From positions 18,611-82,610 of the forward strand of contig CAZUJW010000004.1 in assembly GCA_964620655.1 (NCBI GenBank): DNA of 64,000 nucleotides, given 5' to 3'. Shown here piece by piece: positions 1 through 42,766 of the stretch. The position numbers were made by a program, and so were the translations under genes. Under the pieces are notes generated by a model. The model saw nothing but the letters and a program-made list of their open reading frames with translations. It ran no database searches and was not told where the DNA came from. This DNA is from an uncultured Christensenella sp. GTDB lineage: Bacteria > Bacillota > Clostridia > Christensenellales > DTU072. Numbering within the stretch: position 1 is the first letter of the stretch; the number at the start of each line of letters is the position of its first letter.

Positions 1-3000
1 ATAGCGTTAAGAGCTTCGAATGCCGACGGGTCGAGAATAGCGTAAGCTATAAGGTCGGTAAGGTGAATGCCGAGAGCTTCCATCGTGGCAATACCCGTCG
101 AATCGAACACCATAGTAAGCACGAAGTGAACAAGACCCGCGCTCATCTTCGCAAGCGCGCTGTGCATTGCCTGATAGTACGCGCCCTCGTCGACGTAAAT
201 CTTATTGAAGACGTCGCTATCGTCTTCGTTGTAACGGCCTTTATAGCGATCTACGAAAGCCTTCTTCAATTCGGCTTCGCCCTTGTTTATAATATCGGAC
301 TCGCTGTACTGATCAAGACGGAAGTCGGCGTCGGTAGTCGTACCGCCGAGCGAAATATCCTGCGCGCTTATGGTTTGTCCGGGAGCTATGCCCGTCACGC
401 CCATCATACCGAGAATGATATTTTCCACTCCCGCGAGTATATCGTTAATCCTGCCGGAATTGAGCCATGCTTCGATATAGGTATACGTGTTGTATCTGTC
501 GGTAGCGTTGCTGCCTTCGTAAATAAGATTGCTGACGTCGTCCTGATAGCTGTGGTCGTGGTCCTGAACGCCGTTGTCGCCGTCGTCGTGGACTTCGCCG
601 TCGAGCTTGTCGGCGCCGAGTCTTATTCTTACGCGGCTGAGAAGCTGTCCTATATCGGAGATATTCTCGTCTTCGCTTATGCCCGCCACGTCTTCCGACC
701 AGTGCTTTTCTCTGTAAATAGGATTGAGAGTGACGTAGTAGCTTGCCACCTGACCGTTGTAGGTGTCCAGAACTTTCATATTGCCGAAGGTGTCGGTAGC
801 GTCGCCGTTAGCGTCGGCTGCGAGATTAAGGTTCTGATAAATTTCGCTACGGAATTTTATAATGTACGAACTTGCGCCGATATTTTCGAGAGCGAGTTCT
901 TCACCTGTAAAGGAGAAGTTGCCTTCGCTGTCTACCGCCACCGAGAAGTCGTCGGGAGTAAGGTCGTAGTAATCCACTACGCCCGAAGTGTGTCCGCCCA
1001 CGCTTACCCAGATCTGATAAGTGCCGGGCTCGGGAACTACCCATTCGGAGCTGCCCCTTTCTTTCGGAACGAGTATCTTACCCACTATCGTGGTGGTAGT
1101 AACGTCGGTGCGTTCGAATATCATATCGACTTCGATGCTCATACCGCTACTGCCTTTGGATATAAGGGCGTTAAGCTGATTATTAAGTCCCTCGTCGGTG
1201 ATTGTCGTCGAATCGCCGTTAAGTCTGAATCCGACTAAGTTGTAGCCCGACAGGTTTGCGGTGAATTTGTTCGCAAGAGTGGACAGGTGATTATTTTCGT
1301 AATACTCCCTTATGGAGTCGTAAACCTTTACGGTCATTTCGTAAGAACCCACTCCGTTTCCGTCGGAAAGAACGCTCGATACGGTAAGCCCCGTGCCGCC
1401 GTTGTAGACAAGGCTCGCTCCGCCGAACGGTACTAAGTCTTCGCCGTCTTTATAGTAAGTCTTGCCCGTAAAGGTCACATCCTTGGGGACTTCGCCGGTC
1501 TTGGCTGCGTCTACCAAAGTTACGTTACGGACTACCGCGGTGTTGGTTTCTTTCGGTAAAATCCAAATCTCTCTTTCATAGAAGGAAGAGCATCCGTCTT
1601 TCGACACGCTTATCGCGGTTCTGTCGCCGAGATTGTAGTACACGCCGTCGATAAGCTCGTAGTGCTTGCCGTCATAGTCTATGTACTGCTCCGTATACGT
1701 GCCGTCGGAAGCAATCTTATTGTTGTCTTTGAGCCAGTTTTCAAGCTTGTAGATATTGTACTCGCCGTAAATATGTTCGGTGACGGGGAGATTGGTGAAG
1801 TAATAGTATCCGTCTGCGTCGGTGGTCCTTGTCTGGTAATCGCCGGTGCCGTTGCTGACGGTGACGGTGGCTCCGCTTACGGGATTGCCGTCGGTGTCGG
1901 TGACTCTGCCGTAGAATCTTCCCGTGCCGTTTTCGGCGTTTTCCGACGCAAACATGCTGTCGGGGAAGAGTACCAAGCCCATAATGCTTGACAAGTTAAG
2001 ACCCTTACTTTCCACACCGTCGTTACTTCCGTTCAGGAAGGAGCTTAAATCGAGCGTTATATAAATCTTGATGGTGAGCGACATACCTATCGACAAGAAA
2101 ATCTGATGGTGGTCGATATGCGCGCTTATATTGCCCTGCTTATACGACGGGGTGGATATATCGGCGTTAATTACGTTGGTGACCGACTTGTACGCCAAAA
2201 TTTTGCCCCTTGCGTACTGGTTACGGGTGAATACCGGTTTGTTCTTCGTGTTGGTGACGGAATTTAACAATCCGCTGCCGCCCGTGAAGTACTGGTACCA
2301 CTTCTTAACGTTAACGAGATTATAAATCTTGTTGACGATGTTAAGAACTTTCATTATTCCGCTTAATGCGGCGGCGTCGTTACCTAAATATCCGTCGTCG
2401 ATGTCGGCATAGGTGTACGGACCGGTAGAATCTACTTTCGGGTACTTCGCAAACAAGTCTTTTCTCGACCAGTAATCGGTTCTGTGTTCGAGATAAATGG
2501 TAAGGTCGTCTATAAAGATACCGTCGAGAAGGCTGTTTACGAGAGCGGTGGTGTTAAGGTCAAGACCGCTGCCGTTAAGGCTTACGCCCGTAAGTCCGCC
2601 GTAAGAAGATACGTCGGGCAAATCGAACATTTCGGTAAAGGACTTGTCCTTGCCGCCGGCGAGTTCTCCCACGCCTTCGTTAAAGGCAAACGTAAGTCCG
2701 CCCGTAGGTACGGATAAGGCTACCTTGTTGCCGTACGAGTCTATCGCCAAATTGAAGTTAATATTACTTAATCCGTCGTAGGTGTTAAGAACAAGTTCCA
2801 TACGCTTGAAGTCGGGTACGGAAAGGTTCTTTCCGGGCATAACCATACCGATTATCAATCCGAGCGTAGCCGCATTCGGATTTATCTTTATTTCGGTATT
2901 GGTAAGAATGAGATTTACGATAGGCTTGCCGACCACGTTGCTGCCGCTTGTTCCGCTTATAGAAGAACCGCTATTGCTGTCGTAGATACCGAAGTGAGCG

Positions 3001-6000
3001 AGAGTCTTGGCTTTCAACTGTTCTTTTTCGGAATCGGTGATACCGTATTTTACGTTGACGTAGGCGGAGCAGTAGGAATCCACCGTGCCTTCGACAAAAG
3101 ATCTCTTTCTTGCGGTCACGTTGGTTTCGCTGTTTCCGTCCGTATCGTAGTGGCTGCCTTTCATTTCAAGGAAGTCAAGGTTTGCAGCCGTCATACCGCC
3201 GACAATGGCGTTAAGAATTTCGGGCGTGGCTCCCGCGAAAGAACTTATCATTGCCGATAAGAAGTTTTCCACCGCTTTTACCATATCTTTTTCGGTGGCG
3301 AACAGAACCGCGTTTATAGTATCGGCTTTCTTTTCGGCGTAATCGGAAGCTATCTTCGCTTTAAGCGATGTGCTCATCTTGTCGATGCTCGTAAGATTTT
3401 CTTCCTCGAGTACGTCGTAAATAAACTGCATCTGATTTACGCCGAAACCTTTGTATGTCTTGCCCGAAGCCACGCTGTCGGATATAGCGTCGGCTACCTG
3501 AGCGGAAGTCATTCCGCTAAACGTACTCTGTGCGGAAGTGATAAGGGCGCTTATTGCATTAGCTACTCTCGTCTTTTCTCCGTAGTAGAGATAATCGGTG
3601 GCGGCGGAGCTTATTATATATTCCGCTATGCTCTTTCCGCCTAAGATATAGTCGTACAGAGCCGTGTTTTGTTCGGCTGTGAGTCCCGACAGAACACTAA
3701 TCTTGTTCTCGGTCATAGCGTTTGCTATCACGCCTATCTGCTTAGCGGTGTATCCGCTGTTAAGAGTACTCGAAGCCACGTTCTGCATAGCGGAGTCGAA
3801 ATCGGTCAACGCCGAGCCTTTCGTTTCGGGTTTTATAAAGGTGCTCGATTTAACAGTGCTGCCCTTTTCGCCCTCGTTGAGTTTTTCTGCGTCGAGTATT
3901 CCGCCGACGAGACTTGCCACGTCTATTCCGTCGGTGGTAATCATCGTTTCGAAATCGGTGCCCGAAAGCATACTCATAATCATCGCCGCAAGGTCGATAC
4001 CGCTTATGCTCGCTCTGAAAAGTCCGAGAGTGCCTAAGTCGGCGTAAACCACTCCGTCGATGTAATAAAGACCTATCATGACTTCGTCGTTATAGGTTAT
4101 TTCCAACTTCAACACGGACTTAGCAAAATCGGTAAGGTCTACGCCTAAGTCGAGACCGACGCTGAAAGTCATCGTGGTATCCTGCAAGTCGAACAAAATA
4201 GTGTCGGCTTGGAGACCGAGTATCTTTTCGAGCATGTCTTCGAAACCGGAAATAACTTCGCTCTTGTCGTCCGAACCGGGGTTTTTGGTCTGCAACGTAA
4301 GGTCGAGATTAAGACCTATATGCAAGTTCTTCAATCGGTCTATCGAAGTGTAATCGTCCTTGTCGTCGTCGCTTACGATAGTCATATCGGTCACTTCGCC
4401 GAGTTTTGCTCTCGGTTTCATGTGAGAGTAACTCTTATCGAAGTTGTAACGAATGGAGAACTGCTTGTTTTCGTCCAACACAAACTGAATACCGTTTACC
4501 TTATCCGCGTCGTCGCGACCTATCTTAACGTAGCTGAACGTCGGGATATTGAGTAAAGCGTCGGGAAGAATTCCGCCGAGCAAGTCGTTAAGGTTGCCCA
4601 CCAAAGTAAGGAGCAACGCGCCGGTTATAGCAATGCTTGCTTCTTCGTCGGAGTAGATAAGCATAAGCATGTTCTGCCCGAATTCCATATCCGCTATATC
4701 CTGATATCTCTGAGCGCGTTTTTCCGCGTCGGTAATATCGTTGCCGACGTTGCCGTCAGCCTGTTGCGGAATAATTTCCTGTTCGTCGTTACTTAGTCCG
4801 GTTTCTATCTTTTTAAGGATGTCTTTGACGAGTTTGCCTAAGTTTACGTTGCTTAACGAAATCTTCGGCAAGCCGAGACCCGAAAGGTCGAGATAAACAG
4901 TGCCGTCATCTTCCGTCCCTACGTATTTTATGGAGAGTATTCTCTGAACCAACGAGCCGTTGCCGTCGCCGTGCGCTACTTCCAGCTCGAACCTAAGTTT
5001 ACTTATATCCGAGAAATCTATGTAGGAACGTAACGCGAACAGTATCTCTACGTCGAGCGCGTCGCCGCTCTTAATATTGAAGCCGAGTCCGTTAATAAGA
5101 GAAGCGGTAAGTCCCGAAAGATCGAGAGCGGTGTTGAAATCGTCGTTTATGTGGAACGAACTGTTGACTTCGGTCACCCAGACGTAGTTCTCTAAAGGTT
5201 CGTATCCCGTCGAGAACTTTTCGGAAATGTTTTCGCCGAAGAAGTTTTCTTTCTGTCCGAGTCTTATGTCTATATCCGACAAACCGAAACCGAAGTCAAT
5301 TTTAGAAGTGTTGACCACGTTGCCGTTTTCGTCATAAACGGGAGCGTCGAGAGGAATAGTCAGGAACAACGTGTTGTTGATGTTGTCGAGTTCCAACTGA
5401 ATGTTGCCGAGTTCTGCGAATTCGAATCCGAACAGAGCCTGCAAGAAGGCGTTTACTATCGTGGTGGCAAGACGAATACCTATCGTGCCTTTACCGAAAG
5501 TAAGACCTTCTATTACGTCGCTCCAATCCATGTCGTCTACAAGAGCGTCGAGAGAAGCGGCGTTCTGCGCGGCGGCGTTACTCATATCGATATCGTAACG
5601 AGAATCGCTGTCGAGGAGATAGAAGAAGATGTTGACAAAGTTGATGTTAAACAGGTTATAACCCATTTGCGGCGTGAGAAGCAGTTTGTCGTGCAAGCCG
5701 TCTCCGCAATCAACGTAAATCTTCGGATCGAGAGTTCCCGTGCCTTCGCCGTCATGGTTAAGGAGTCCGCCGACGAAGTAGATATTGAATATGTTGACGT
5801 TGTCGCCGTTATATCCGCTTACGTAGAAGTCGAACGCCGTCTGTTCGAGGTCGATATCGAGACCTATGTCGAGACGAATTCTTCCGCTGGCGTTCTTCAA
5901 TATTTTGAGCTGGAAGAAGGTTTCTATTTCCTGAACGCTGAACAAGTCGCTCCAGTCAAGTATGGATTTAAGCACGTTGCTTTCAAGATAGATGCTAAAA

Positions 6001-18000: not shown

Positions 18001-21000
18001 ATATTCAATTCGACTAAGTCTTCGCCGAATGCGCTGAGATACAAGTTGGGGGTGTACTTATTAAAGTAGTTTTCGATATCCACGCCGAGAGCCGCCGTAA
18101 GAGCGTAGATGGCTCCGCCGGTAATTTTGAGCATAAGAAGGTCTTTGCCCTGTTCGGTGTTTACGGTAAGAAGAATTTCTCTCGCTATCGCGCCGGTAAG
18201 GTCCTGAACCGCCGCGTTGGAGGCGGCGTTGCTGCTGCCTCTGCCGGTAATTTTGCCCAGGTCTAAGCCGAAACCTTTCGCCAGAGCGATAAGAATCTGA
18301 CTTACGTTGTTTAATTTGATTTTTTCCACGCCTAAGAAGCCGAGATTTATATAAACGTCGGCTACGCCTTCGGCGTCGAGAATAACGTAAAGAGAAAGGG
18401 CGTTGCCCAAATAGAAGTCGCCGCAGAGACCGTACAACTTGTTCCAGCAAGCGGTGAACTGTTCGGTTTCGGTAACGTATTTACCCGAAGAACGTATTTC
18501 GGTCTGAATATCGAGCATAAGACGATAGCAAAGGTAATCGTCCAGAACTTGCGTTTCGTCGGTATAAAGGTTGCCGTCGGAGTCGTAACCGTCGCCGGGA
18601 ACGGAATCTTTAAGCTTGCTTACGAGCTGTCGCCATGCGGCGTCCTTTTCTCCGCCGTAATCTTTGAGCAATTCGGAAAGCATGCCTCTGCGGTCAGCCA
18701 GCTTTTCGTAAAGTTTGTAGTTCTTTTCCGAAGTAAGGTTAAGGAACAGTTCCACGTTCTTTAAGTCCTTAACGGTGGTAAGGTTTACGTTGGCGTTAAC
18801 GGAGAAGTAGGTAGCCTGCTTGAAGATATCGCCGTCGGCTATGTCTATCTGACCGCCCACGCCCCAGTCACGACCGTCCAACCAATAGTTGGCGAACATC
18901 TTAATGGCGTAGTCGAAATTAAAGTTGCGATACACGTCGGTCATCGCAAAGGACGTAAGACCTCCCCATTGCAAACCTACGGTAGTAAACTTTTCTACTT
19001 CTTCGTAATCTTTGTTTTTGTCTTCATCGGTAATTATATCTTCTTCGAAACTTGCGTTGATATTACCGATAGTCACGCCGATTTCGGTGGCGTGGTTGCC
19101 TTCTTCCGTTACGTTGCCTTCGGCGTCGAGATAAATATTCGCGCTTACGTCGACGTTGCCCTTGAACCCTACGAGAACTTCGAGACCGAAGTCGAGTTCC
19201 GACAAGGCTTCGGTAAGGTCGATGCCGAATATTCTTATCACGCTTATAAGCGTGGCTTTCGTGACCGCAATACCGAGGCTGCCGTCTCTGAACATAAGAT
19301 TAAGATAAGTGGCTAAATCTTCGCCGCTTTCTCCGTCTGCATAGGAAGCTCCGTCGGCAGAGTATGAAGCGGAACTATCCGACTTATCCAACCCGAGGAA
19401 CTTGTCTATCGCGTCGTTAAGCGAGGACATAAAGGAGGAATCGAATATATCCATAACGCCGTTTATTACCGCGGTGACGTCTTTCAGAACCACGTTGCCG
19501 ATATTGAAGATGTTGGTGGAAACGTAAACGTCGCCCGAGAACTGCGTTTCTCCTACGGGAACTTCACTTCCGTCGTAGAAGAGAGTAAGCACGGTTTCGT
19601 CGTGAATTTGTCCGTCGGCTTCGGAATAATTGTGACGGATAAGTTCTATTTTAAGAACGCTGCTGTAAATACTTGCGAACTCCAACCAGGCGTCTATTTT
19701 GAATTCGAGGCTGTCGTCCATTTCGCCCATAAACTGAGCCATAATGACCATCGCAAGGTCGTTAAGGTCGACTATTATGGAGTTGTTGACGAGATAATCC
19801 CACGCCTTAGCGTAATAGTTGTCGTCGCCTTCGACCCAGGTCTTCCATTCTTCGACGTTGTTTTTGTTGGCTTTTATATCCTTAACCGCCGAAGCGTAAC
19901 GGGTAGCCATTTCTTCTTTTTGCGCAGAAGTAAGTTCGGTTCCGTCAAGTCTTCTCCACGCCGCGGCTTTCATTGCGGTGACGGTCATATCCGTGCCGCT
20001 GTTTTCTTCGGCTATTTCCGCATATATTGCGTCAAGGTCGGTCTTCTTGAAATCGGAATTGCTGAACAACGTGCCTATCATATCGGTGATATCGTAGTCG
20101 TTGCTCAATCTCAATCCGGTTTCGCCCGTATCGTTTTTAATATATATAGAACCCGACGCAGAAACGTGTACTGCGTTCGGCACGCCGTCGGTCGTATTTT
20201 CGGGTTTGTATCTGTCGGTGTTTACGCTTATCGAATATTTTTCGCGCTCATCGGGGTCGACGCTCGCTACTAACTCCGTAAGTCCTAAACCGAATTCGTA
20301 CGTTCCGCCGAACGCTACCGATAAATCAAGCTCTATTCCGTCGCTTAAATCGAGTCCGAGTTTTATGTCGTCGAGAGTGACGTACTCGTTTACTTTTTCA
20401 AATCCCAACATGGTAAGTACCGCCGAAATGGTCGCGGCGGAAAGTTCTACCGATACCTTGCCCGAATTGAACAGTATCTGCAATGCGATACGATTAGGAT
20501 TGCTTATATCGGCGTTTTCACTAACGGTAGGCACGCGGACGTCGGAATTAAGGTTGGGCGTGACGGACTTTCTGAATTCTTCTATGGTTTCGCTGTTCGC
20601 GTTCTGCGGTTTGCTTTCTTCTATTGCGTTGAGTTCCGCCTTGAAAGAAGCGTTGTTCCTTATTCTGAAACAGGTGACCGCTTTAAGTTCGGTTTCGGTC
20701 ACTTTGCGGGCGGTATAATCACTCTCAACCTGGTCTTCGACGGCTTTATCCACCCATTCGGGGAGAAGTCTTATATAGTCTTCCGAAGCTCTTATCTGCG
20801 AGTTGGTCTTGCCGCCGTACATTTCGGCGTAGGTCATACCTTTGCCGGTATCGGTGGTTTCGTCGGTCTTCAAGAAGTCTATAAGGGCAAGGTCCTGCTG
20901 ACGCTGAATAGTTGCGTAGCTGTCTACCTTTATTACCGCTCTTAAATAGTTCTTTATTTCCGCTACGGTGTTGGCGTACTCGGTTCTCAAAAGGGTATCG

Positions 21001-24000
21001 AGCTGATCGCTTTTTCCTTTCTTGTTGTAGACGCTGTCGTATTTAGCCGCATAGTCGGCGAGCATCGTTTTATATGCGGAATTGGACTTGCTTGCGAGCA
21101 AGTCGTTAAGGTCGACGTAACGGGTTCTTTCTTCCTGGTTTCTGTCGTCGGTTTCCCATTGGTCGAGACGCATTTTTTCTTCTTCTTCCGCCACGCTTAT
21201 CCTTAACGGAGTTTTGTCGGTGGTTATGTACGGAGAAAGGGTCACGTAAATTTCACCCGTCGCGTTTCTTATCGTAATTACGCCGTTATTTTCGATTTCG
21301 TAAGTTTTGTCACTTTCTTTCAACGAAATATCGCAGGAAGAGTCGGTGTAATTGAAGTTTTCGGAGAATTCTTTGGCAAAGTACAGATAAATATATCCGT
21401 CGTCGTTAAGGAGATATTTATAAGAGCTCGTCGGGTAGCGGCTCGCATAACCGTGTCGTGTATAGAAGGTGTCGAAGAAGTAATTAAGGACGGTTTCTTT
21501 CATAACGTAATCCATAAAATCACGTTTGCTGTTGTACGCGTCTTTGGAATTAATTCTCGTGTCGCTCGTCTTATTGTAAGCGTTGTTCCACAGCAAGGCT
21601 ATCGCGCCTACGTAAGTACCTTCGAGGTCGCTTACCGCTACGGTGTTAATGCCGAAATAGCTGAAATCGACGTAGCCTTTATTGTCGTCTACGTATACGC
21701 CCGCTATTACGGTGTATCCGAGTCCTTTGCTTGTTATATATCCGCTTGCGTCGGGAGCCGACTTATCGAAAATTACCACGCCGACGTTACTTTCGAAAAT
21801 GTTGTTGACGTTTATATTGCCCTTGACGGCGATACCTATGTCGAGTCCCGTGTTGTAGAAGTAATCGTTGTCGATTTTAAGAGCTAAGCTCTTAATGAGT
21901 ACGTCGAGGAAGTCTTCGCTGTTTTCGGCGGAACCCATTATTTCTCTCAGCATCTTGCCTATCGTAACGTTGAGTTTTTCGGGGCTAAGTTCGGCAGAAC
22001 CCGCCTCGAATTTAATTCCCAACTCGACGTTTACGGAAATAACGAGTTCTTGCACCCATTCGGACAGAGAGGTATAGGTAGCGGAGCTGTGACCACCGAT
22101 AAAGTCGAGGTCAGAACCTTTCTTCATCGAGATACTTTCGATAAGGTCGAGTCCGACGTAGAAAGCGTCTTTCTTGCCCGTATCGCTGTCCACTATTCCT
22201 ATGTAAGCGGTGATATAATCTTTGTCCACGAAGTGGGGTACGATTTTGCTTATGTCTATATCCCAATCGGTAAGGTTGCCGTTTTCGTCGTAGATAAGGA
22301 GTTTTCCTTCCTCGTTATACTTATAAGAGAATACCTTTTTCTCTTTCTCGCCTTCGTTGTAGTAGACGTATTCGTAAAGCGGATTACCGTTCGCGTCGTA
22401 CGCTATCTGCGTGCCGAGATGCAAGAAAAGATTGCCGTTTACCTTCGGTAAATCGCCCGTTATGTCGAGAGACATAAGAGCCACCACCGCACTTAATACT
22501 TCGGCGTTTACGATAACACCGAGTCTTCCGTCTTTGACGGAAAGTTCTTCCACAGCTTGTTCGATAAGTCCCATCATATCGAGAGAATCTCCGCCGGCAG
22601 AGTCGCCGTCGGCGTTAAGGACCACGGTATCCGCCAGCATATAGAGAAGAGTCCTTTGCATGGCTTCTTTGTCAAAGCCTTTTCCGAATTCGACGGTGCC
22701 GTCGGCGTTAAGGCTTAAATTGAAGTCGGCGTTGGCGCCGATTATGGAGCCTATTCCCGAGAAGTCCAATTTTATTCCTTCCAGCATCTTGGCTATACCC
22801 ACGTCGGGAATGGACAGTTTGGGAATTTTGCCGTCGATTATCTTCGTAACTCCGAGTTTGTCGTGGAGCTGAGTCATCATATCGGCTTCTTCGTCGACTC
22901 TCGGGTTTATGTACAGGGTATCGTCGGTACCCGAATAGTAAATTGTAAGGAAGGGGAAGCCCTTAACTCTTTCTCCGTTCTCCAACAGATACAGGTCTAT
23001 AATAAGACCGAGTTCGGACAGTCTTAAAAGATTTACGCCGGCTTTGATTTCGTATCCTATATGAAGTTCGCTACCGGTTTCTATACCGAGTCCTACAAGA
23101 ACGTTCTGAACGAACGCTCCCACCAAAGCGGAAAGGTCGATTTCCGTATCGGCGTTGCTGCCTATCTTAAAGTCGCCCGTAATGGTAGCTCCGTATTCGA
23201 GAGCGCCCGCCATGGACCTGTATTCGCCCCTTAACGCTTCCGCTCTGTCCGCTCCGTCGCTCGGAACGTCGCCGTGGCTGTCGCAACCTACCGCGTCCAT
23301 ATCGAACGCGGGGGACTTGAAGTAGCTTATTCCCGTGGTGTAGGTACCGTCCTCGTTGGTCTTGCCGAAACCTACGTGGACGTTCATATTTTCGGTAACG
23401 TCGAGATTAACCCTTATCGAGTCGAACACGTCGGCAAGGTCTAACGATAATCCCATGCCGTAGATACCGAGATTCATTCCCGGCATAAACATACCGACGA
23501 GAGTGTTTATTCCCGCGTTGTCGAACTTCAAGCCGAATACTTTCGATTCGTCGTCGGGGAAGGTGAAGCATTTAAGATTACCTTGTTCGTCGGTTTGCAA
23601 CAGTAGTTGCAACAGTTTCATAACGTCAAAACCGCCCGTCGTATCTCCGTCGGCGTTGCTCGAACGAGTACCGCTCGTCGTTCCCGCATAGTACGGGTCG
23701 AAATATTTCATTATTCCGCCGAGAAGCCCCGGTACTTCGGGAGTTCCCGCAAGGATTTGCGTAATGTTAAGAGACGGCATACGCAGCTGCGGCATAAGAG
23801 CCTTGCCGTTACTGGTAAGGTTGCTCGCGTCGATATACAGAGTATTGAACATTACCGAACTGCCTTCCTGCAAGGACATGTCGGGCACGAGATATAGGGA
23901 TATTACTTCCGCTCCGCAATACTTTATGGTCGCCTGCGCTTTGTTGTTGGCGTTGTTAAATAAGTCGAGACTTGCGGCGAGTTTTACGTCGAAGTCGTAA

Positions 24001-25337
24001 TGGGAATTACCCGAAATATGCAAAGGAATGCCGCCTACCGCTCCCAAATCGAGGAAACCGCCCAAAAGGCTGTCTATCGTCAGCTCTTCGTCCTTTTCTG
24101 CGTCTACTCCGAGATTAAGGTTAAGTTCGAGATTGGTGAAACTCGCTTCTTCGTAAGTGCTGTTTTTGCCCGACGCGCCGAAGTTGTAACCGGCAAGGTT
24201 CATCTTGACTTCGTCGCTGTCGCTCGTGTTCAGTTTGAACGGGTTAATCGTAAGATTAAGGTCGTATTCTTTGGTTGCGCTCTGTACGTCTATCGCAAAG
24301 CCCGTAAACTTATAATCTTTTTTAGTAGTGCTGTCGGCTTGCTTTACGTCGGCAAGTTCGGTAATGGCTTTGAATTCCACGGTCATGGACGGCCATTGTT
24401 TATTTACTATGTCTTCCAAACCGAACCCCAGGAACGCTCTCAACAGGGGATCGAGATTGGGTAAGTCCATATCGAGAAGACCCGCTATGCCTTCCCACGT
24501 GAGGTCGAGAGAGAAGAAATTACCGATTTGTATCTTCTTCTTCATAATCATACCGAACAGGAAGTCGGCTTGGAAATATTGATTTATGTATTGATACTTC
24601 GGCAAATCGCCGTCTTTTTCCGCACTGTAAACGACGGTAGACGCGTCGTCGAACAACATACCCCAAATCAAGGGCAAAAGGGAAGCTACCGTTTCCGCGC
24701 CGGCAATATCGAGCGACGCTCCGAAAAGATTACCGACGAGCGGAACTATATCGAGATTATTGTCGGTGAGAATTTTAAGCAAAGCTCCGCCTATCTGACT
24801 CAAATTGAGCTGTTCGGCGTAATATTTTTTGCCGCCTATATCGACGTAAGTGGTCGAGTCGTAATAATAGAAGCCCGCCTTGACTTCGTCGCTTCTTATA
24901 TCGGTCACTTCGACGAACAACGCGCTCTGAGCGTTATCTTCTAAGTTTATGGCGGCTTTTACCACAATGTTATATTCGACGGCGGTCACCGTATCGTCGG
25001 TGTACTTTTCGTCGACTTTTGCGTAGGTATTGAAGGAGAAAGCTATACCGAAGTCTACATTGAGCCATTTGGGGTCGGCGGCGTAGGTAGTGCCGAGGTT
25101 CTTAACCGAAGTCTTTATGTATTCGCGAGCGTCTTTATTGACGACGTTGACGACCTTTTGTTCGCTCTTGCCGGGATCGATTACGTCCCCGCCGTTATTA
25201 TCCGAGTCGTCGGGTCTTTCCGAACACGCCGCAATGCTGAATACCAATGCGAGTATCAGCAGCAACATCAACGCATAACTGAAAAAAGATTTCTTTTTTC
25301 CGCTTTGCGCTATGGATTCTTGATTTTTCGGTCTCAT
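1..25337 (-). CDS. Giant predicted lipoprotein, 5' end complete, 3' end cut by the window edge (at least 8,445 codons)
   Basis: The minus-strand ATG at 25337-25335 is immediately preceded by an in-frame TAA (25340-25338) and by GGAGAAGAA (complement of 25341-25349). My translation of the start is MRPKNQESIAQSGKKKSFFSYALMLLLILALVFSIAACSERPDDSDNNGGDVIDPGK. That is a basic n-region, a hydrophobic core and a lipobox (SIAAC). Spot translations at 25337-24841, 10361-10405, 7861-7900, 1785-1920 and 1-60 all fall in the same frame (first codon base at coordinate = 2 mod 3). The supplied track lists no minus-strand ORF in this frame anywhere in 1-25337; the five minus ORFs listed there are in the other two frames. 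That is what is expected if the frame never meets a stop before the window edge and so was never closed or reported. Plus-strand ORFs over this span are antisense shadows. Confidence 0.85.
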   Translation of the reverse strand, partial: MRPKNQESIAQSGKKKSFFSYALMLLLILALVFSIAACSERPDDSDNNGGDVIDPGKSEQKVVNVVNKDAREYIKTSVKNLGTTYAADPKWLNVDFGIAFSFNTYAKVDEKYTDDTVTAVEYNIVVKAAINLEDNAQSALFVEVTDIRSDEVKAGFYYYDSTTYVDIGGKKYYAEQLNLSQIGGALLKILTDNNLDIVPLVGNLFGASLDIAGAETVASLLPLIWGMLFDDASTVVYSAEKDGDLPKYQYINQYFQADFLFGMIMKKKIQIGNFFSLDLTWEGIAGLLDMDLPNLDPLLRAFLGFGLEDIVNKQWPSMTVEFKAITELADVKQADSTTKKDYKFTGFAIDVQSATKEYDLNLTINPFKLNTSDSDEVKMNLAGYNFGASGKNSTYEEASFTNLELNLNLGVDAEKDEELTIDSLLGGFLDLGAVGGIPLHISGNSHYDFDVKLAASLDLFNNANNKAQATIKYCGAEVISLYLVPDMSLQEGSSVMFNTLYIDASNLTSNGKALMPQLRMPSLNITQILAGTPEVPGLLGGIMKYFDPYYAGTTSGTRSSNADGDTTGGFDVMKLLQLLLQTDEQGNLKCFTFPDDESKVFGLKFDNAGINTLVGMFMPGMNLGIYGMGLSLDLADVFDSIRVNLDVTENMNVHVGFGKTNEDGTYTTGISYFKSPAFDMDAVGCDSHGDVPSDGADRAEALRGEYRSMAGALEYGATITGDFKIGSNADTEIDLSALVGAFVQNVLVGLGIETGSELHIGYEIKAGVNLLRLSELGLIIDLYLLENGERVKGFPFLTIYYSGTDDTLYINPRVDEEADMMTQLHDKLGVTKIIDGKIPKLSIPDVGIAKMLEGIKLDFSGIGSIIGANADFNLSLNADGTVEFGKGFDKEAMQRTLLYMLADTVVLNADGDSAGGDSLDMMGLIEQAVEELSVKDGRLGVIVNAEVLSAVVALMSLDITGDLPKVNGNLFLHLGTQIAYDANGNPLYEYVYYNEGEKEKKVFSYKYNEEGKLLIYDENGNLTDWDIDISKIVPHFVDKDYITAYIGIVDSDTGKKDAFYVGLDLIESISMKKGSDLDFIGGHSSATYTSLSEWVQELVISVNVELGIKFEAGSAELSPEKLNVTIGKMLREIMGSAENSEDFLDVLIKSLALKIDNDYFYNTGLDIGIAVKGNINVNNIFESNVGVVIFDKSAPDASGYITSKGLGYTVIAGVYVDDNKGYVDFSYFGINTVAVSDLEGTYVGAIALLWNNAYNKTSDTRINSKDAYNSKRDFMDYVMKETVLNYFFDTFYTRHGYASRYPTSSYKYLLNDDGYIYLYFAKEFSENFNYTDSSCDISLKESDKTYEIENNGVITIRNATGEIYVTLSPYITTDKTPLRISVAEEEEKMRLDQWETDDRNQEERTRYVDLNDLLASKSNSAYKTMLADYAAKYDSVYNKKGKSDQLDTLLRTEYANTVAEIKNYLRAVIKVDSYATIQRQQDLALIDFLKTDETTDTGKGMTYAEMYGGKTNSQIRASEDYIRLLPEWVDKAVEDQVESDYTARKVTETELKAVTCFRIRNNASFKAELNAIEESKPQNANSETIEEFRKSVTPNLNSDVRVPTVSENADISNPNRIALQILFNSGKVSVELSAATISAVLTMLGFEKVNEYVTLDDIKLGLDLSDGIELDLSVAFGGTYEFGLGLTELVASVDPDEREKYSISVNTDRYKPENTTDGVPNAVHVSASGSIYIKNDTGETGLRLSNDYDITDMIGTLFSNSDFKKTDLDAIYAEIAEENSGTDMTVTAMKAAAWRRLDGTELTSAQKEEMATRYASAVKDIKANKNNVEEWKTWVEGDDNYYAKAWDYLVNNSIIVDLNDLAMVIMAQFMGEMDDSLEFKIDAWLEFASIYSSVLKIELIRHNYSEADGQIHDETVLTLFYDGSEVPVGETQFSGDVYVSTNIFNIGNVVLKDVTAVINGVMDIFDSSFMSSLNDAIDKFLGLDKSDSSASYSADGASYADGESGEDLATYLNLMFRDGSLGIAVTKATLISVIRIFGIDLTEALSELDFGLEVLVGFKGNVDVSANIYLDAEGNVTEEGNHATEIGVTIGNINASFEEDIITDEDKNKDYEEVEKFTTVGLQWGGLTSFAMTDVYRNFNFDYAIKMFANYWLDGRDWGVGGQIDIADGDIFKQATYFSVNANVNLTTVKDLKNVELFLNLTSEKNYKLYEKLADRRGMLSELLKDYGGEKDAAWRQLVSKLKDSVPGDGYDSDGNLYTDETQVLDDYLCYRLMLDIQTEIRSSGKYVTETEQFTACWNKLYGLCGDFYLGNALSLYVILDAEGVADVYINLGFLGVEKIKLNNVSQILIALAKGFGLDLGKITGRGSSNAASNAAVQDLTGAIAREILLTVNTEQGKDLLMLKITGGAIYALTAALGVDIENYFNKYTPNLYLSAFGEDLVELNIDLENLFNLSIAINYPDFTLTDGMELVINEDAYTVIDKEWTTDFKIFFEGSLALGAKGEDTSTSPDDITSINFGDLLRGLLKDESFAVDVILKSLETVGADLSFYLEAKANIAQLSMLMTLLTADESTLTDVQKEAKKALCGDDGKIDLLKVLSSSGVEMFLEIVNRREDSANKGYIKEDLVLGIYLIKETSADGLSEYLSLYIDMSAFHIGRIKVADFESTANALIKRIGELFGNSGSDTSDTGSETGGTSSNADEKEIDSEFTKGAFEKSTEIYDFVRYIIWMKSTAEANKEDLDKIPSDLFITEARMNELLAAMNGNNGLSGFSNAPALYADGEALSDFIHGIVGNTYGLTVSAAANVLIKLLNEAFNDEKSRFSRSLGNYLEALYAGDKEEEILDKKAILSRMNDILIANEWVDGETSTENDGRKANAWEALLDSGTLGDYYTVKAMEIYNGLLNGSSADAEVCPAAWDKLAALINADIEALQDALEDSDAEGEFMSAFAKEYTDYYVSGIALDSYANAMNVKLDALSTAYAQAEETVATMSGISESAKQANIERFAYEYFVGRFNWSTADNDVYKGIYNTKYTESGGSKLTAGSEAWKAIRSMINNEYENLLSALRYVNSYAYNDFGLKTTGNQTLNGSEEDFIRENNVFVISDGRYSRYADAVSYTYKAMAWKYLVSNKAIDADTADGYYTAAVNNYVRNARNFLTYLEYRYAAWKYLNADAERILATTEDGNKFTIRATTAEDGTVTWYKTEITEQYQLTLEDYYDKSYSEIPQLIVDAANKEGVLTIGFLYDGSIADVSAEIANLYLKVDFVKAGIKIADSDLSRTRLQYVYNDYDEITGQEEVTEVVNDENLQKTNGEFSLLDENFGYVYAKLDVEFGLNMEDDVQYDFTELVNSLLTQLGLNLNINGQTLQIAPVLSILSTVGDYFRISLEARVNMFRLVNKDLSDTDISLTVYSLDDSGNRKETVLQLVFGAGSEDDGTKYDFVYVDAGRFNIQRLYIKNALEQIKKLLGNANASYAVAYDVHNGGSIAKVIMAAMIADVLAVDDGNSNPEVDVNLAKYGMSVQLAANAIYTLLTFLGMGDVKSMISKVGSPEVALDIFSVANYGKDSDVLQNYDDGDRNVIAVSLNFDSINENGVSTGRGIGLELAIRNMELSFAQDKMIEFDEDEVLKRDENGDPIDFAEVDGMLPKIALKTTVLLEIEAGVTNGTNLYQDPVNTIMNNYLGGLVMDIALYIANKQKITVAVDIEASLDLGNGEDNNYLDHLISGSSFRIAFRIFRVGEKVATDQNKEWAVITYFGGNLYIDLSELNSDKLYLADVGNLIFGDGTDAQSAAMFATFDALNAAIGAVKVGVDAEINSSGLYLIIKKAAIASMLKVFGFGGFDMFPDAAIQLYVKGMKVEDGVNTFDIGFNLALGENLVTGSTELNPTLGLGMSIKGLYVGFSGLDIQVSDSAEYIQLDRLDTVYFSTEIIINVTDEKGIYKLGGLLQVLKENGYFDLGATLGIDTAIDPVIEFLESLESKLYVKVDLTVNIKNIIDDLQARISIYTKAPEERSDNESPVLSLAYIRGDVYIDAEGISNSENFYLGKVKISGLMDMIKTLTGSDASDDAKNTYKNIKEYEQLFSKNTSLFADVNNKVNGTVNIIGDVVKGLTVELVNGAIFGILKQLMGVDMKELITNVETMVDSVLDPYLGITITPSMTVLITIGLPSKAYNVSESVVAVPKSMEAAINNWYSDRKDDLIYPDDAWNKLFEDSLLYDLYNVSGSVKADKVKEWIALGLPDISVVYAEMRLRFSKMSDNQIYTLTYDYMIGEIYGNDSLAAAYGYDFGSDKVIDNTTKRSEKLDAFYNDYLKTVAFDSFYSSADDAVKSVLDSMLSIYSGSKVAVYDAYVASTESGAEELRNLYENDTHKEKIDEMKSSVGHEAVVYMNLIKGIMNSTFAMEDAWISYISDQIKYTSGSDKIKIYLAKYDELYIIQRAYAWDTFLAEAIEDRDYVKVAMMESAFNYAAGRYKTATEQELKAYAYDKYRKDLIEDSTIYEEALVADDVSILKTVVINEMRLYKYRGESEDISSTGVTKDDIADLIAIIEAIVTGIQTYSVKNTVILNEYQEAELVYDIIFSSSDALNVIGELFSGNSTEVLRTIRAYAIDELRKSDVERITNQIVASPDETESDKTELLSALIGRYADRFELIRGQSVEQLAIEDYADGKSFRADAWNNLISLEYKSILPENAVILSAEIGAKNSGYAISEENNGYEVNPSVYFADNYNVNIENDMLKLSLIYAELKARAESKLLFEAAETYADDSDNIGNVISICANSGYGKDGYLVEFYRTARSFARYLYLIGATLSAEDVEMVKAVSEGNYGVISCEAYYDGFASYKGESTTRYGEIATALGIVKDMYATLKEEETELNKSVRKDINDSVKSIMPVREMTTDNLTEAKTNGEIVDGKGMPLYQTYLALVLFRTKYAGDASVNTAFDYAEQYRTLGLNEYVAAVYGRFVKICESDSLKKELEQTITAFNGGDYSVLTAEAWNAFNFEGDVYDNDRNVVEIKERAAFINKLFERIADEEYAKRSAWEAWYRLSSTAARIEEMDDMLRAKVFEDLYPSIKNLLTEIIVGNANTVIKDGMSVIGVSAKTYEKVNIISYNEYFEDLKRETEALYATLKDYDEELTDVSDAAENELTLEFESSATDVQKASIMKKVYDEITADSTKYAESVAVTWAESYATARKALIIVDRQKYSDLMYDKLSDDDKNKYASDVFAAFDAAVEHTISKYAAATENALLGDAKTNFDTLIESVNGHLNEAESARSTYEYEKNYLKAYNKYFADAANVGKTDSDFEKAMDELDGGIEEYLGSDYEKVSYTAPTYPTDTSTATTMKALKPMWDSVVAADRQIRKDTLKFKYDTYAYNQDEGITLDEYNEGVESVNNEKYDDGNYVMYTYLNGYGALTRKQGETEYGFYFRQISTLRVLENDTKISVQSRNTIAENAGDYRTAALGWENLFKDNETTIDIKTLLTKVYSFCLDTWYDSDATLVGYRNNIYSVYYETAENMFDSLFAKGYITSLFGGTDAKVEYNDYIAKFDELKDAVSALGSSTAQTDKDTVGLYEKDRTEVLLTLTDKNEALLMEKIYKSYVAGKLSAGVVSDFDSVLNSYGAAFENKVYETAYEYFTELIYSERNGTIYSDFRTKAAALYDEYATVAIALLKQIYFEITTGSELNVNTITAAASAFSGFVIPGEYSRFVSFINVFADETAKFTEDGVLTSDGKLRTLATVIKGNGVLTGNDDTVKKMTEIRKAFVAFVRDNYLTFGATENMLATLAKYYESFASLSKEYSALFTTAETVAKRTETKNLISGYGYDVSDVSDVSDAYIDMLSVIFMAGSSNIGGINKIYRQKFDGYAKDVNSAVYLTITEVTFRNALAANYDDIAAAIRANDPLLQSFVEGQGIDSTSTAQEKALALIALSDEIESYLASGKTLSEVTSAAYAETRSAILSLAEPEKYLTSYIWNKYYSFKASEEIKNALALKETLAVSGESDVTEYLTFDEMSDILKKYLSYKQSQAIIGLVSVLEGSSTLIKSFDQIYKNALKSAEALADLTLSLGISGKDTSILFDIKRYQEDETGTSVSLIKDVLTDDEKAEYIEYSDLTLRVNLNASLSINFDEGRLDINPLLNLINLPVKLSELDIDFLAEHTLYATIEGQLGINFEALLSGDTDRINSSIVGELALTYYLIDHDTNGENTRFEQVLIHIWLYGPNIYAQVELFDSHVSAKIPFALGEKIISIVNPSGGTEESDETSGSSAATIRALNSAVMSAYHGVSREEAENMLNPFEQLYSVVNNADSSIADVLEVLLRIGSKETALILTVDILAELVKVIFKEETLSSDLEDLVNLAFTEGELAIEYGDDLGLSFSIRKNAEEGSDKIGYDAELALLRNTVVSLDRAKYDSLYGSIDELYKDGFFEDFFALGLNVDTSATLSEILASVIGARTTVSFSIYLESNVLKSILDWSDLFSVQEIETFFQLKILKNASGRIRLDIGLDIDLEQTAFDFYVSGYNGDNVNIFNIYFVGGLLNHDGEGTGTLDPKIYVDCGDGLHDKLLLTPQMGYNLFNINFVNIFFYLLDSDSRYDIDMSNAAAQNAASLDALVDDMDWSDVIEGLTFGKGTIGIRLATTIVNAFLQALFGFEFAELGNIQLELDNINNTLFLTIPLDAPVYDENGNVVNTSKIDFGFGLSDIDIRLGQKENFFGENISEKFSTGYEPLENYVWVTEVNSSFHINDDFNTALDLSGLTASLINGLGFNIKSGDALDVEILFALRSYIDFSDISKLRFELEVAHGDGNGSLVQRILSIKYVGTEDDGTVYLDLSGLGLPKISLSNVNLGKLVKDILKKIETGLSNDEQEIIPQQADGNVGNDITDAEKRAQRYQDIADMEFGQNMLMLIYSDEEASIAITGALLLTLVGNLNDLLGGILPDALLNIPTFSYVKIGRDDADKVNGIQFVLDENKQFSIRYNFDKSYSHMKPRAKLGEVTDMTIVSDDDKDDYTSIDRLKNLHIGLNLDLTLQTKNPGSDDKSEVISGFEDMLEKILGLQADTILFDLQDTTMTFSVGLDLGVDLTDFAKSVLKLEITYNDEVMIGLYYIDGVVYADLGTLGLFRASISGIDLAAMIMSMLSGTDFETMITTDGIDVASLVGGILDAEKLNEGEKGSTVKSSTFIKPETKGSALTDFDSAMQNVASSTLNSGYTAKQIGVIANAMTENKISVLSGLTAEQNTALYDYILGGKSIAEYIISSAATDYLYYGEKTRVANAISALITSAQSTFSGMTSAQVADAISDSVASGKTYKGFGVNQMQFIYDVLEEENLTSIDKMSTSLKAKIASDYAEKKADTINAVLFATEKDMVKAVENFLSAMISSFAGATPEILNAIVGGMTAANLDFLEMKGSHYDTDGNSETNVTARKRSFVEGTVDSYCSAYVNVKYGITDSEKEQLKAKTLAHFGIYDSNSGSSISGTSGSNVVGKPIVNLILTNTEIKINPNAATLGLIIGMVMPGKNLSVPDFKRMELVLNTYDGLSNINFNLAIDSYGNKVALSVPTGGLTFAFNEGVGELAGGKDKSFTEMFDLPDVSSYGGLTGVSLNGSGLDLNTTALVNSLLDGIFIDDLTIYLEHRTDYWSRKDLFAKYPKVDSTGPYTYADIDDGYLGNDAAALSGIMKVLNIVNKIYNLVNVKKWYQYFTGGSGLLNSVTNTKNKPVFTRNQYARGKILAYKSVTNVINADISTPSYKQGNISAHIDHHQIFLSIGMSLTIKIYITLDLSSFLNGSNDGVESKGLNLSSIMGLVLFPDSMFASENAENGTGRFYGRVTDTDGNPVSGATVTVSNGTGDYQTRTTDADGYYYFTNLPVTEHIYGEYNIYKLENWLKDNNKIASDGTYTEQYIDYDGKHYELIDGVYYNLGDRTAISVSKDGCSSFYEREIWILPKETNTAVVRNVTLVDAAKTGEVPKDVTFTGKTYYKDGEDLVPFGGASLVYNGGTGLTVSSVLSDGNGVGSYEMTVKVYDSIREYYENNHLSTLANKFTANLSGYNLVGFRLNGDSTTITDEGLNNQLNALISKGSSGMSIEVDMIFERTDVTTTTIVGKILVPKERGSSEWVVPEPGTYQIWVSVGGHTSGVVDYYDLTPDDFSVAVDSEGNFSFTGEELALENIGASSYIIKFRSEIYQNLNLAADANGDATDTFGNMKVLDTYNGQVASYYVTLNPIYREKHWSEDVAGISEDENISDIGQLLSRVRIRLGADKLDGEVHDDGDNGVQDHDHSYQDDVSNLIYEGSNATDRYNTYTYIEAWLNSGRINDILAGVENIILGMMGVTGIAPGQTISAQDISLGGTTTDADFRLDQYSESDIINKGEAELKKAFVDRYKGRYNEDDSDVFNKIYVDEGAYYQAMHSALAKMSAGLVHFVLTMVFDSTGIATMEALGIHLTDLIAYAILDPSAFEALNA
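1785..1910 (-). other. Carboxypeptidase-regulatory-like / Cna-B-like beta-sandwich segment within the giant CDS
   Basis: Hand translation gives GRVTDTDGNPVSGATVTVSNGTGDYQTRTTDADGYYYFTNLP. This matches the classic G-x-V-x-D-x-x-G-x-P-x-x-G-A-x-V ... T-D-x-x-G-x-Y-x-F-x-x-L pattern of CarboxypepD_reg/Cna-B type domains. A second similar start, GKILVPKERGSSEWVVPEPGTYQIWV, lies at about 1020-1090. Confidence 0.6.
7865..7896 (-). repeat. In-frame 9-bp tandem repeat (3.5 copies) inside the giant CDS, encoding (DVS)n
   Basis: The plus strand reads cgtcgctta x3 followed by cgtcg. The minus-frame translation is Y-DVS-DVS-DVS-DA. Confidence 0.9.
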
Positions 25338-25400
25338 TTATTCTTCTCCGTTTGGCTTTTTTGTTAAAGGGCGCACTTCACCCTTTTTCTACGCAGTTTA

Positions 25401-25429
25401 ATTATAACGCGTATCGCAATGCGTGTCAA
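25401..25429 (-). promoter_or_regulatory. Consensus sigma-A/sigma-70 promoter for the giant gene
   Basis: Read on the minus strand: TTGACA (25429-25424), 17-nt spacer (25423-25407), TATAAT (25406-25401). Both hexamers are perfect and the spacing is optimal. The element lies about 64 nt upstream of the ATG at 25337. Confidence 0.7.
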
Positions 25430-27617: not shown

Positions 27618-27632
27618 AAAACGGTTCTGCGG

Positions 27633-27661
27633 TTGATTTTTTTGCAATTTTTATATACAAT
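27633..27661 (+). promoter_or_regulatory. Candidate promoter for fhs
   Basis: TTGATT (27633-27638), 17-nt spacer, TACAAT (27656-27661). It lies about 30 nt upstream of the fhs ATG, with GGGAGA at 27681-27686. Confidence 0.5.
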
Positions 27662-27691
27662 GTTTTTATCACTTTCTTTCGGGAGAAAATC

Positions 27692-36149: not shown

Positions 36150-36365
36150 GGTTTAGCCTGTAAACGACGGATTTGCCACGGCGAAACCGCAAGGAGTGAA
36201 AATTAGCCGCGCCGACGGCTTGGCAATCGACTCCGTACGGTGGATTTTTTGCAGCCTTACGCCGTAATAAGAGGCTTTGCATAAACGCGGCGAGAAGAGT
36301 GGAGTGCCGAGTGTATGGTAGACGCCGGTTTCATAACCCTTTCCGCCACGATTTACATATTTTTA

Positions 36366-36395
36366 TTGACAGAGCGGAAAGATTACCGCTACAAT
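36366..36395 (+). promoter_or_regulatory. Candidate promoter for the surface-protein genes
   Basis: TTGACA (36366-36371), 18-nt spacer, TACAAT (36390-36395). AAGGAG at 36417-36422 precedes ATG 36428. Confidence 0.55.
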
Positions 36396-36427
36396 CTTAC
36401 TATAAGGAATACGCACAAGGAGTAAAT

Positions 36428-39583: not shown

Positions 39584-39593
39584 GAGAATAGCC

Positions 39594-42680: not shown

Positions 42681-42731
42681 GCTGACAATAAAACGAATTT
42701 CGGCTAACGCCGAGCTAATTTACAGCAAGAT

Positions 42732-42766
42732 AAAGCAAAGTTCCGCCGTCGGCGGAACTTTGCTTT
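42732..42766 (+). terminator. Strong hairpin after the 1,028-aa lipoprotein gene (probable terminator)
   Basis: aaagcaaagttccgcc (42732-42747) pairs perfectly with ggcggaactttgcttt (42751-42766), a 16-bp stem. The T-tract is only partly present and is embedded in the 3' arm. Confidence 0.5.

Follow-up and report, generated by a model that had tools for sequence, protein, structure and literature searches.

The window analysed here was the whole 64,000-nucleotide stretch between positions 18,611 and 82,610 of contig CAZUJW010000004.1, from an uncultured Christensenella sp. (assembly GCA_964620655.1). Its minus strand contains the first 73% of a single giant gene, the full length of which is 34.9 kb. 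The gene encodes a predicted lipoprotein of 11,640 residues which, by sequence comparison, is larger than every other member of an undescribed family of lipoproteins of 7–12 thousand amino acids (kaa) from uncultured, Christensenellales-like Clostridia. The features of the gene within the window were as follows.

25401–25429, minus strand: sigma-70-type promoter, TTGACA-17 nucleotides-TATAAT, with 12 of 12 matches.
25341–25349, minus strand: ribosome-binding site GGAGAAGAA in the upstream sequence, followed by an in-frame TAA and then by the ATG at 25337.
3–25337, minus strand: open reading frame (ORF), codons 1–8445 of the 11,640-codon gene, running off the left end of the window with ~9.6 kb missing.
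25224–25337, minus strand: lipoprotein signal peptide, residues 1–38, with the lipobox IAAC and Cys38 as the predicted lipidated mature N-terminus.
23028–25223, minus strand: N-terminal segment and modules 1–2, residues 39–770, the part modelled with AlphaFold2.
12723–24995, minus strand: module array part 1, residues 115–4205, 11 module matches, with insertions at residues ~1186–1546 and ~2835–3235.
7299–12722, minus strand: lineage-specific insertion of ~1.8 kaa, residues 4206–6013.
2481–7298, minus strand: module array part 2, residues 6014–7619, 6 module matches, with an insertion at residues ~7177–7431.
3–2480, minus strand: start of the distal non-module region, residues 7620–8445, collinear with the distal 3,000–3,500 residues of the relatives.
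1779–1913, minus strand: CarboxypepD_reg domain (PF13620; prealbumin-like β-sandwich), residues 7809–7853, 41.4 bits against a cut-off of 32.3.
1155–1475, minus strand: second, diverged β-sandwich copy, residues 7955–8061, aligned to residues 7807–7926 with a probability of 96% by profile comparison.

The reverse complement of positions 3–25337 was translated mechanically and remained open for all 8,445 codons, with no stop. The reading frame began at 25337 with MRPKNQESIAQSGKKKSFFSYALMLLLILALVFSIAAC followed by SERP (continuing SERPDD), in which a basic n-region and a hydrophobic h-region precede the lipobox I-A-A-C38. Immediately 5′ of the ATG were GGAGAAGAA and an in-frame TAA. The promoter, which reads from 25429 to 25401, looked strong and constitutive. 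The G+C content of the giant-gene region resembled that of the remaining window, and cysteine accounted for 18 of the 8,445 residues (0.21%). These results bear out a preliminary description of the window, made from the letters alone, which had claimed a single stop-free frame from 25337 to the window edge, an N-terminal lipidation signal with a lipobox, a consensus promoter of its own, and a near-absence of cysteine. The description had also proposed that the frame continued past the window, and this was confirmed by an independent contig and by the stop found in two orthologues. The ENA contig ERZ27279216:k141_78204 (74.4 kb) matched the window with 100% identity over the 21.7 kb that were retrieved and carried FeoB, the divergent neighbour of the giant gene, with identical sequence. 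The giant-gene product called on this contig had 11,640 residues and was located wholly within it.

When GTDB species genomes were scanned, one orthologue was recovered in 'Christensenella sp. UBA6420' (DJPE01000068.1) and the other in the rumen genome RUG11213 (CACXFJ010000047.1). They were 90% and 87% identical, respectively, to the window protein over residues ~4310–8445. Both stayed open for a further 3,190–3,194 codons and ended at a shared stop, ...DDFTFYVYTI[IL]RIN. The stop was followed on the 3′ side by a terminator, composed of a GC-rich hairpin and a T-run, and then by a convergent gene, the C-terminus of which was of the uracil-DNA-glycosylase type in appearance. When the window part was joined to the RUG11213 C-terminus, the protein had a mass of ~1.29 MDa and a net charge of about −733, with Asp and Glu together accounting for 14–18% of residues along its whole length. 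The ratio of nonsynonymous to synonymous substitution rates (dN/dS) among the three genomes was 0.12–0.145 (4,133 codons), a value that places the giant gene under purifying selection along its length. The lack of a stop, the perfect promoter and ribosome-binding site, the identical contig, the shared end of the orthologues, and the dN/dS ratio therefore identified a real gene. It is an expressed-looking, monocistronic unit with a predicted promoter and terminator of its own.

The signal peptide was divided into MRPKNQESIAQSGKKK-SFFSYALMLLLILALVFS-IAAC38, and its lipobox agreed with the pattern [LVI][ASTVI][GAS]C. Residues Ala36, Ala37, Cys38, and Ser39 were invariant among the close homologues, and the lipobox cysteine was found in all distant relatives read. 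The giant protein is a predicted bacterial lipoprotein with a Sec/Lsp-type signal peptide, and a predicted substrate of Lgt and Lsp. As the lipobox is conserved, the acylated Cys38 would tether the mature protein to the cytoplasmic membrane on its outer side. Strongly hydrophobic stretches were limited to the signal peptide and one Gly-rich segment, and no second anchor was found. The orthologue C-termini, ending ...DDFTFYVYTILRIN before the stop, had neither an LPXTG motif nor a hydrophobic tail, and did not resemble the end of a sortase-anchored adhesin. Wall-binding domains of the SLH, CWB, or LysM type were absent by Pfam from the window part and from the orthologue C-terminal part. The Gly-rich, strongly hydrophobic stretch, LNAIKMLGAIPGVGIVFTILGTVAGALGSILSTI...QLGAIIGELATIFSCLLPIQLG (residues 8443–8500), occupied window positions 3–11, extended past the left edge, and was read from L005. 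It was the sole transmembrane-like segment besides the signal peptide, and its equivalent was less hydrophobic in the relatives.

Over the 8,445 residues encoded in the window, Pfam gave one match, of 45 residues to CarboxypepD_reg, and the last 3,189 residues of the orthologue gave no significant match. Searches of NCBIfam and of PDB sequences with the giant protein gave no match. When 5.8 billion proteins were searched by word index for similarity to the N-terminal 1,200 residues, only three fragments were found. Since this search returned 1–4 proteins per query, profiles included, all family information was obtained from an exhaustive HMMER search of 1.84 billion cluster representatives with a profile built on the sequences from that N-terminal search, in which 54 proteins were found at E ≤ 1e-3, 32 of them at E ≤ 1e-30. 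Six relatives were complete, with 7,125–7,879 residues and with lipoprotein signal peptides in all six, and some of these were recovered at equal length in 9–19 independent assemblies. They were named in databases only as 'hypothetical protein' or 'carboxypeptidase-like regulatory domain-containing protein [Clostridia bacterium]'. The family was rare and patchy, and in this search it was restricted to uncultured Clostridia of the gut, rumen, or digester type.

In BLASTP and in the family alignment, all six relatives ran collinearly with the giant protein between its residues ~15 and ~11,600, with an identity of 22–36%. The ~3,800 extra residues of the giant protein were located in insertions at residues ~1186–1546, 2835–3235, 4205–6014, and 7177–7431. 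The family plan, a lipobox followed by tandem ~300-residue modules, CarboxypepD_reg, and a conserved distal region of ~3 kaa, was found here in the same order throughout. One further candidate, P0002 (1,696 residues, recorded as 'complete'), was rejected as a short form of the family, its homology ending at residue 1643. Beyond that residue its scaffold (L002 6320–7330, ENA ERZ16268063 scaffold_12443) was antisense to a MATE-type transporter gene. The L002 scaffold is probably chimeric or rearranged, and the length of P0002 is uninformative.

The preliminary description had recognised no adhesin-type tandem repeats in the nucleotide sequence. This was correct, as no tandem or dispersed DNA repeats of note were found in window positions 1–25500, but a repeat architecture is present at the level of protein profiles, by which at least 17 copies of a ~300-residue module were detected. 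The array was recoverable only by profile–profile comparison of family-alignment tiles together with an iterated hidden Markov model (HMM) of the module. The all-against-all comparison with hhalign covered ~1,000 of the 2,850 tile pairs, the distal region and the insertions being compared separately, and revealed a cryptic repeat with a probability of 90–98%. For example, residues 452–645 were equivalent to 763–974 and 6767–6968, and residues 1858–2097 to 3360–3545 and 3679–3898. The HMM of the ~300-residue module converged on 98 copies in seven proteins. The 7–8 kaa relatives contained 13–16 contiguous tandem modules, from residue ~100 to residues ~4,300–4,500, and the giant protein contained at least 17 copies, in residues 115–4205 and 6014–7619. 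These copies were only 15–21% identical to each other, which accounts for the lack of a module signal at the DNA level. In the N-terminal two thirds of the protein, at least 17 highly diverged α/β modules of ~300 residues follow one another head to tail. In the module consensus, hydrophobic and charged residues alternated along about a dozen strands. The consensus also contained 'VLSVYYVGGDLYIDLSGLGLGKIKIEDV', a hallmark hairpin, together with a variable loop of acidic character and 'AALAALLGLLGLDL', an amphipathic helix. Simpler procedures were tried and rejected. BLASTP of 200-residue tiles against the whole protein gave merely three weakly similar stretches of ~100 residues, an HMM seeded on these failed to grow, and the regular expression 'YY.G.LY.DL' was too crude. 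Crude hydrophobic-moment and propensity profiles of the protein were uninformative.

The second part of the array, residues 6014–7619, was the best conserved part of the protein in comparison with the relatives (up to 36% identity). The 1.8-kaa insertion that precedes it was non-repetitive and rich in Ala, Glu, Lys, Tyr, and Leu, and it looks α-helical from its composition and sequence. It was missing from the 7–8 kaa relatives and present in the two orthologues from residue ~4310 onward. The insertions as a whole showed neither a module match nor repetition. The module profile gave no match to PDB sequences, and the tandem repeat families Ig (immunoglobulin), Rib, cadherin, FIVAR, and Flg_new were absent by Pfam from the 11.6 kaa. 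The Pfam repeat search was effective, because Flg_new and LRR_5 were detected in another gene of the window. Domains of nonribosomal peptide synthetases and polyketide synthases (NRPS/PKS), namely condensation, adenylation, KS, AT, and PP-binding, were absent from the whole protein at E ≤ 0.1; a PP-binding trace on 1 of 14 modules was a chance-level match (E 0.1).

The fold of the module was examined by AlphaFold2. The first model (residues 1–1200, 4 sequences) had a predicted local distance difference test (pLDDT) score of 36 and was discarded. A model of residues 39–770, built from 39 diverse sequences, had a mean pLDDT of 79.3, with 200 residues above 90, and a predicted template modelling score (pTM) of 0.66. 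It was composed of sheets of long antiparallel strands (up to 15–20 residues) alternating with groups of helices. With moderate confidence, the module is predicted to consist of long twisted antiparallel β strands capped by helices. The pTM value suggests that two consecutive modules form one fairly rigid body, not loose beads.

When this model was compared with PDB structures by Foldseek, the matches were marginal, with a best E-value of 5.7e-4 (to 1e-2), template modelling (TM) scores of 0.1–0.33, and root-mean-square deviations of more than 10 Å. All matches with a probability of 0.5 or higher were proteins of the LolA/LprG/LppX superfamily or ApoB. They comprised the LolA-superfamily protein NE2245, LprG (0.94), Borrelia LolA, P. 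gingivalis LolA3, LppX, other LolA-like proteins, and the β-barrel and βα1 regions of ApoB-100. The probabilities for LprG, LolA, and LppX were 0.72–0.94, with TM scores of 0.2–0.33. No Pfam match to LolA, LolA_like, or LppX_LprAFG was found in the whole protein (E ≤ 0.1) or in 14 separate modules (E ≤ 10). AsmA, AsmA_2, and DUF490 (TamB) gave no Pfam match and did not occur among the top 50 Foldseek PDB matches, and Foldseek against viral structures gave no match. Because the Foldseek scores were marginal and neither Pfam nor PDB sequences were matched, the resemblance is one of fold class and is no evidence of membership of the LolA superfamily. LolA, LprG, and LppX (LppX_LprAFG), the best structural matches to the modelled modules, have an open antiparallel sheet covered by helices, and LprG and LppX are N-terminally lipidated, as is predicted for the giant protein. 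However, they are single domains of 180–240 residues, whereas at least 17 modules of ~300 residues are arranged in tandem here. The strands of the giant-protein modules are also much longer (15–20 residues), the TM scores are 0.2–0.33 with no sequence or profile similarity, and a cavity or ligand is hypothetical here.

The distal region contains the CarboxypepD_reg domain. This domain covers 0.4% of the giant protein, so the NCBI name of the relative P0012 describes almost nothing of the protein. Beyond residue 8500, a distal region of ~3,100 residues contained one further internal duplication. In the relatives, Big_4 Ig-like domains were found at or above the Pfam cut-off in three proteins, and P0023 had three CarboxypepD_reg domains. 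An iterated Big_4-like HMM detected just 1–2 domains per protein, owing to divergence. The C-terminal 1,400–1,900 residues were collinear across the family with an identity of ~24%. By these profile matches, the distal third has CarboxypepD_reg β-sandwiches and, in the relatives, also Big_4 Ig-like domains.

The giant gene stood alone in the window, with FeoB, FTHFS, GreA, LysRS, and other housekeeping genes upstream on the other strand. In four distant relatives, the giant gene was the last of a group of genes on the same strand. These loci, which are outside the window and on the same strand as the giant gene, were as follows.

L006, 4286–9647.
L007, 2351–7700.
L008, 1493–7703.
L001, 5665–9800.

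The upstream group contained a transglutaminase-core/Big_2 protein (~950–1,085 residues) at all four loci, a ROK-family protein at three, and a PIG-L deacetylase at two. The group also contained a ~285-residue protein, with 43% identity between the L001 and L006 copies and with faint matches to DUF6786/DUF4380, and L007 also contained a 2,046-residue RCC1/Big_3 protein and, downstream, a GH20 hexosaminidase. These neighbours may be functional partners, in cross-linking or in the handling of amino-sugar glycans, and the neighbourhood of the relatives hints at a link to amino-sugar glycans.

The giant gene had been described as the sole minus-strand gene, which was correct within 1–25.4 kb but not for the window as a whole, as other minus-strand genes were located at 57.5–61.2 kb. 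The other large ORFs without an assigned family in the window were unrelated to the giant protein. The remaining observations on the window were as follows.

36299–47812, plus strand: run of surface-protein genes unrelated to the giant protein, comprising a 1,094-residue lipoprotein (six Flg_new and LRR_5), a 1,028-residue lipoprotein with no Pfam match, an LCAT-like lipase/acyltransferase (458 residues), a 528-residue protein of no recognised type, and a 602-residue MBG_2/Ig protein.
58262–61177, minus strand: 971-residue ORF with no Pfam match, adjoining a RadC-like JAB-domain gene (57514–58383, minus strand) with a listed overlap of ~120 nucleotides.
~29337–30051, plus strand: apparently split Sir2-family gene, in which a 165-residue ORF matched only positions 58–180 (the C-terminal part) of the SIR2 profile.
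27482–29335, plus strand: FTHFS ORF, listed as beginning at a TTG and overlapping the end of feoB by ~135 nucleotides.
34767–35720, plus strand: 317-residue predicted lipoprotein (MLAAC followed by SS) with no Pfam family, located between PSP1 and a UPF0047/YjbQ gene, and 300 residues long on the identical contig.

On ERZ27279216:k141_78204, two overlapping SIR2 fragments of 92 and 165 residues were called, and the split gene may be a frameshift or a pseudogene. The true start of FTHFS is probably ~90 nucleotides downstream of the listed one, since the Pfam match begins at residue 73 and 586 residues are called on the identical contig.

The preferred function of the giant protein, to which about an even chance is assigned, is that of a lipid-anchored extended fibril or adhesin. 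After export by Sec and acylation at Cys38, the protein would stay attached to the outer side of the membrane. Its module array would form a long semi-rigid stalk, lengthened in this lineage by the insertions, and would carry the distal β-sandwich region through and far past the cell wall, ~100–300 nm by rough domain-size arithmetic. Far from the cell, the distal region would bind glycans, particles, or other cells. Ebh of Staphylococcus aureus is a comparable giant Gram-positive surface protein. In Giant1-5 of Apilactobacillus kunkeei, signal peptidase I (SPI) signals are combined with stalks of helical or Ig repeats and with C-terminal SH3b-like domains (PMC12863079). The giant protein shares with Ebh and Giant1-5 the megadalton scale, the N-terminal signal peptide, a long array of imperfect repeats predicted as a stalk, and β-sandwich domains near one end. 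It differs from them in that Ebh and Giant1-5 have Sec/SPI signals and a C-terminal wall-binding domain (SH3b-like/DUF5776) or membrane anchor, whereas the giant protein has a predicted N-terminal lipid anchor. In addition, their stalks consist of α-helical or Ig repeats that are detectable by RADAR or Pfam, whereas the stalk here consists of a new α/β unit with 15–21% identity, and the giant protein contains 1.8 kaa of unique sequence in its middle. Several points weigh against the fibril or adhesin role, which would rest on architecture and analogy. The fold resembles lipid-binding proteins, though weakly, and not known adhesin stalks. The distal region of the giant protein itself has one Pfam match, the Ig-like content being found in the relatives only, and no homologues of the relatives' glycan-related neighbours were found in this window. 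Moreover, the C-terminal 3,190 residues were read from the 87%-identical orthologue and not from this organism.

The resemblance to lipid carriers leads to the strongest of the other readings, which is possible but considered unlikely. In it, the modules would be LolA/LprG-like half-barrels with a hydrophobic cavity, and the protein would act as a tethered reservoir, relay, or conduit for lipids or other hydrophobic ligands. Lipids or lipoglycans would be moved across the thick envelope or to a partner cell, host surface, or particle, to which the distal part would dock. This is consistent with the Foldseek PDB matches, which at a probability of 0.5 or higher were all lipid carriers, and with the predicted lipidation of the protein, as in LprG and LppX. 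The module consensus is dominated by alternating hydrophobic/charged strands and amphipathic helices, and the two-module pTM of 0.66 suggests that the modules form one continuous body and not a string of beads. However, the E-values were marginal (5.7e-4 to 1e-2) and the TM scores low; the modules matched no LolA, LppX_LprAFG, AsmA, or TamB family of Pfam at E ≤ 10 and no PDB sequence; and no lipid-metabolism genes were linked to the giant gene, here or in the relatives. A sheet with one hydrophobic side would be expected of any α/β domain as well. AsmA-like proteins, TamB, and VPS13, in which an N-terminal membrane anchor is followed by a long series of amphipathic strands punctuated by helices, served as the working analogy for a lipid conduit. 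These proteins function between two membranes of the same cell, but the present host belongs to Bacillota and is presumed to have a single membrane. The more specific proposal, that the array is a continuous, lipid-anchored LolA/LprG-like chain of more than 100 nm, serving a single-membrane bacterium as an extracellular conduit or reservoir for lipids exchanged with a partner cell, a host surface, or a food particle, and evolved independently from a different fold as a functional counterpart of TamB/VPS13, is improbable.

A role as a structural component of the envelope is equally doubtful and less plausible than lipid handling in general. The protein would be a scaffold, sheath, or ruler, for example in an S-layer-like or wall-spanning matrix, and its charge would bind cations or wall polymers. 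The net charge of about −733, with 14–18% Asp and Glu throughout, the strong, constitutive-looking promoter, and the single copy under purifying selection along its length are in accord with this role, as is the transglutaminase-core protein, a possible cross-linker, next to the giant gene in the relatives. On the other hand, no SLH, CWB, or LysM-type wall-binding domain was found, and the family is rare and patchy. The length varies between lineages from 7.1 to 11.6 kaa by large insertions, a variation more easily reconciled with a projecting fibre than with a fixed lattice.

CdiA, Rhs, and MafB-type systems carry C-terminal toxins on very long stalks. By this precedent, the giant protein could be a contact-dependent effector with a stalk that, as in polymorphic toxin systems, would bring a toxin or a membrane-inserting element at the C-terminus into contact with neighbouring cells; the Gly-rich hydrophobic residues 8443–8500 could insert into membranes. 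This is very unlikely, since the C-terminal 1,400–1,900 residues are collinear across the family with ~24% identity and are not polymorphic, no toxin, pretoxin, or immunity-gene signature was found, the gene is followed by a terminator and a convergent glycosylase-like gene, and the hydrophobic stretch is much less hydrophobic in the relatives. Least of all, although family scaffolds can be chimeric, as in the switch of L002 to MATE-antisense sequence at ORF residue 1643, an assembly chimera or a decayed pseudogene open by chance is effectively refuted by the 8,445 codons without a stop, the identical independent contig, the same gene end in two further genomes, the recurrence of complete relatives across many assemblies, and the dN/dS of 0.12–0.15, the last of which, together with independent recovery, excludes both chimera and pseudogene decay.

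In bacteria, giant proteins usually belong to the NRPS/PKS enzymes or to the surface proteins composed of recognisable repeats (PMC11573180). A study of Omnitrophota also notes proteins of 10–30 kaa in gut Clostridia, with arrays of RCC1, Listeria-Bacteroides repeat, YG, dockerin, and LRR domains (bioRxiv 10.1101/2023.11.21.568195). Like the giants of the Omnitrophota type, the protein described here is known from metagenomes only, is mostly dark to Pfam, and was hidden by assembly fragmentation (bioRxiv 10.1101/2023.11.21.568195). However, numerous transmembrane segments and SecA-DEAD-like domains occur in the Omnitrophota giants (bioRxiv 10.1101/2023.11.21.568195), and the giant protein has neither these nor the Clostridia repeats. 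Literature searches on giant lipoproteins, Christensenellales, and LolA-like tandem arrays gave no description of the present family. The expectation in the preliminary description that the protein was probably undescribed, with no recognisable family, has held, in that no characterised giant surface-protein family covers it. In overall design the giant protein resembles other very long, extended surface proteins, but it belongs to an undescribed family with a new building block. Its novel features are the predicted N-terminal lipid anchor, a module that domain libraries do not recognise, and the large unique insertions, and with modest probability its function is new. Beyond the preliminary description, the length of 11,640 residues, the relatives of 7–12 kaa, the cryptic module array, and the distal β-sandwiches look like a new family of extended surface proteins rather than something wholly unprecedented.

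At 11,640 residues and ~1.29 MDa, the giant protein is among the largest bacterial proteins and, unlike nearly all of these, belongs neither to the NRPS/PKS enzymes nor to the arrays of known adhesin repeats. Of its 11,640 residues, 45 are recognised by domain libraries. An odd single ORF has now become a defined family with 54 clusters, six other complete members, a usable module profile, a confident model, and a conserved neighbourhood in the relatives. Standard ORF tracks and fragmented assemblies systematically miss giant genes of this kind. Purifying selection acts throughout the gene, which takes up ~35 kb in a small genome, and the cell therefore pays a high price for it. If the modules do bind lipid, they would represent a new solution to long-range lipid transport. 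The giant protein likely shapes the attachment or the material exchange of these abundant, poorly known organisms.

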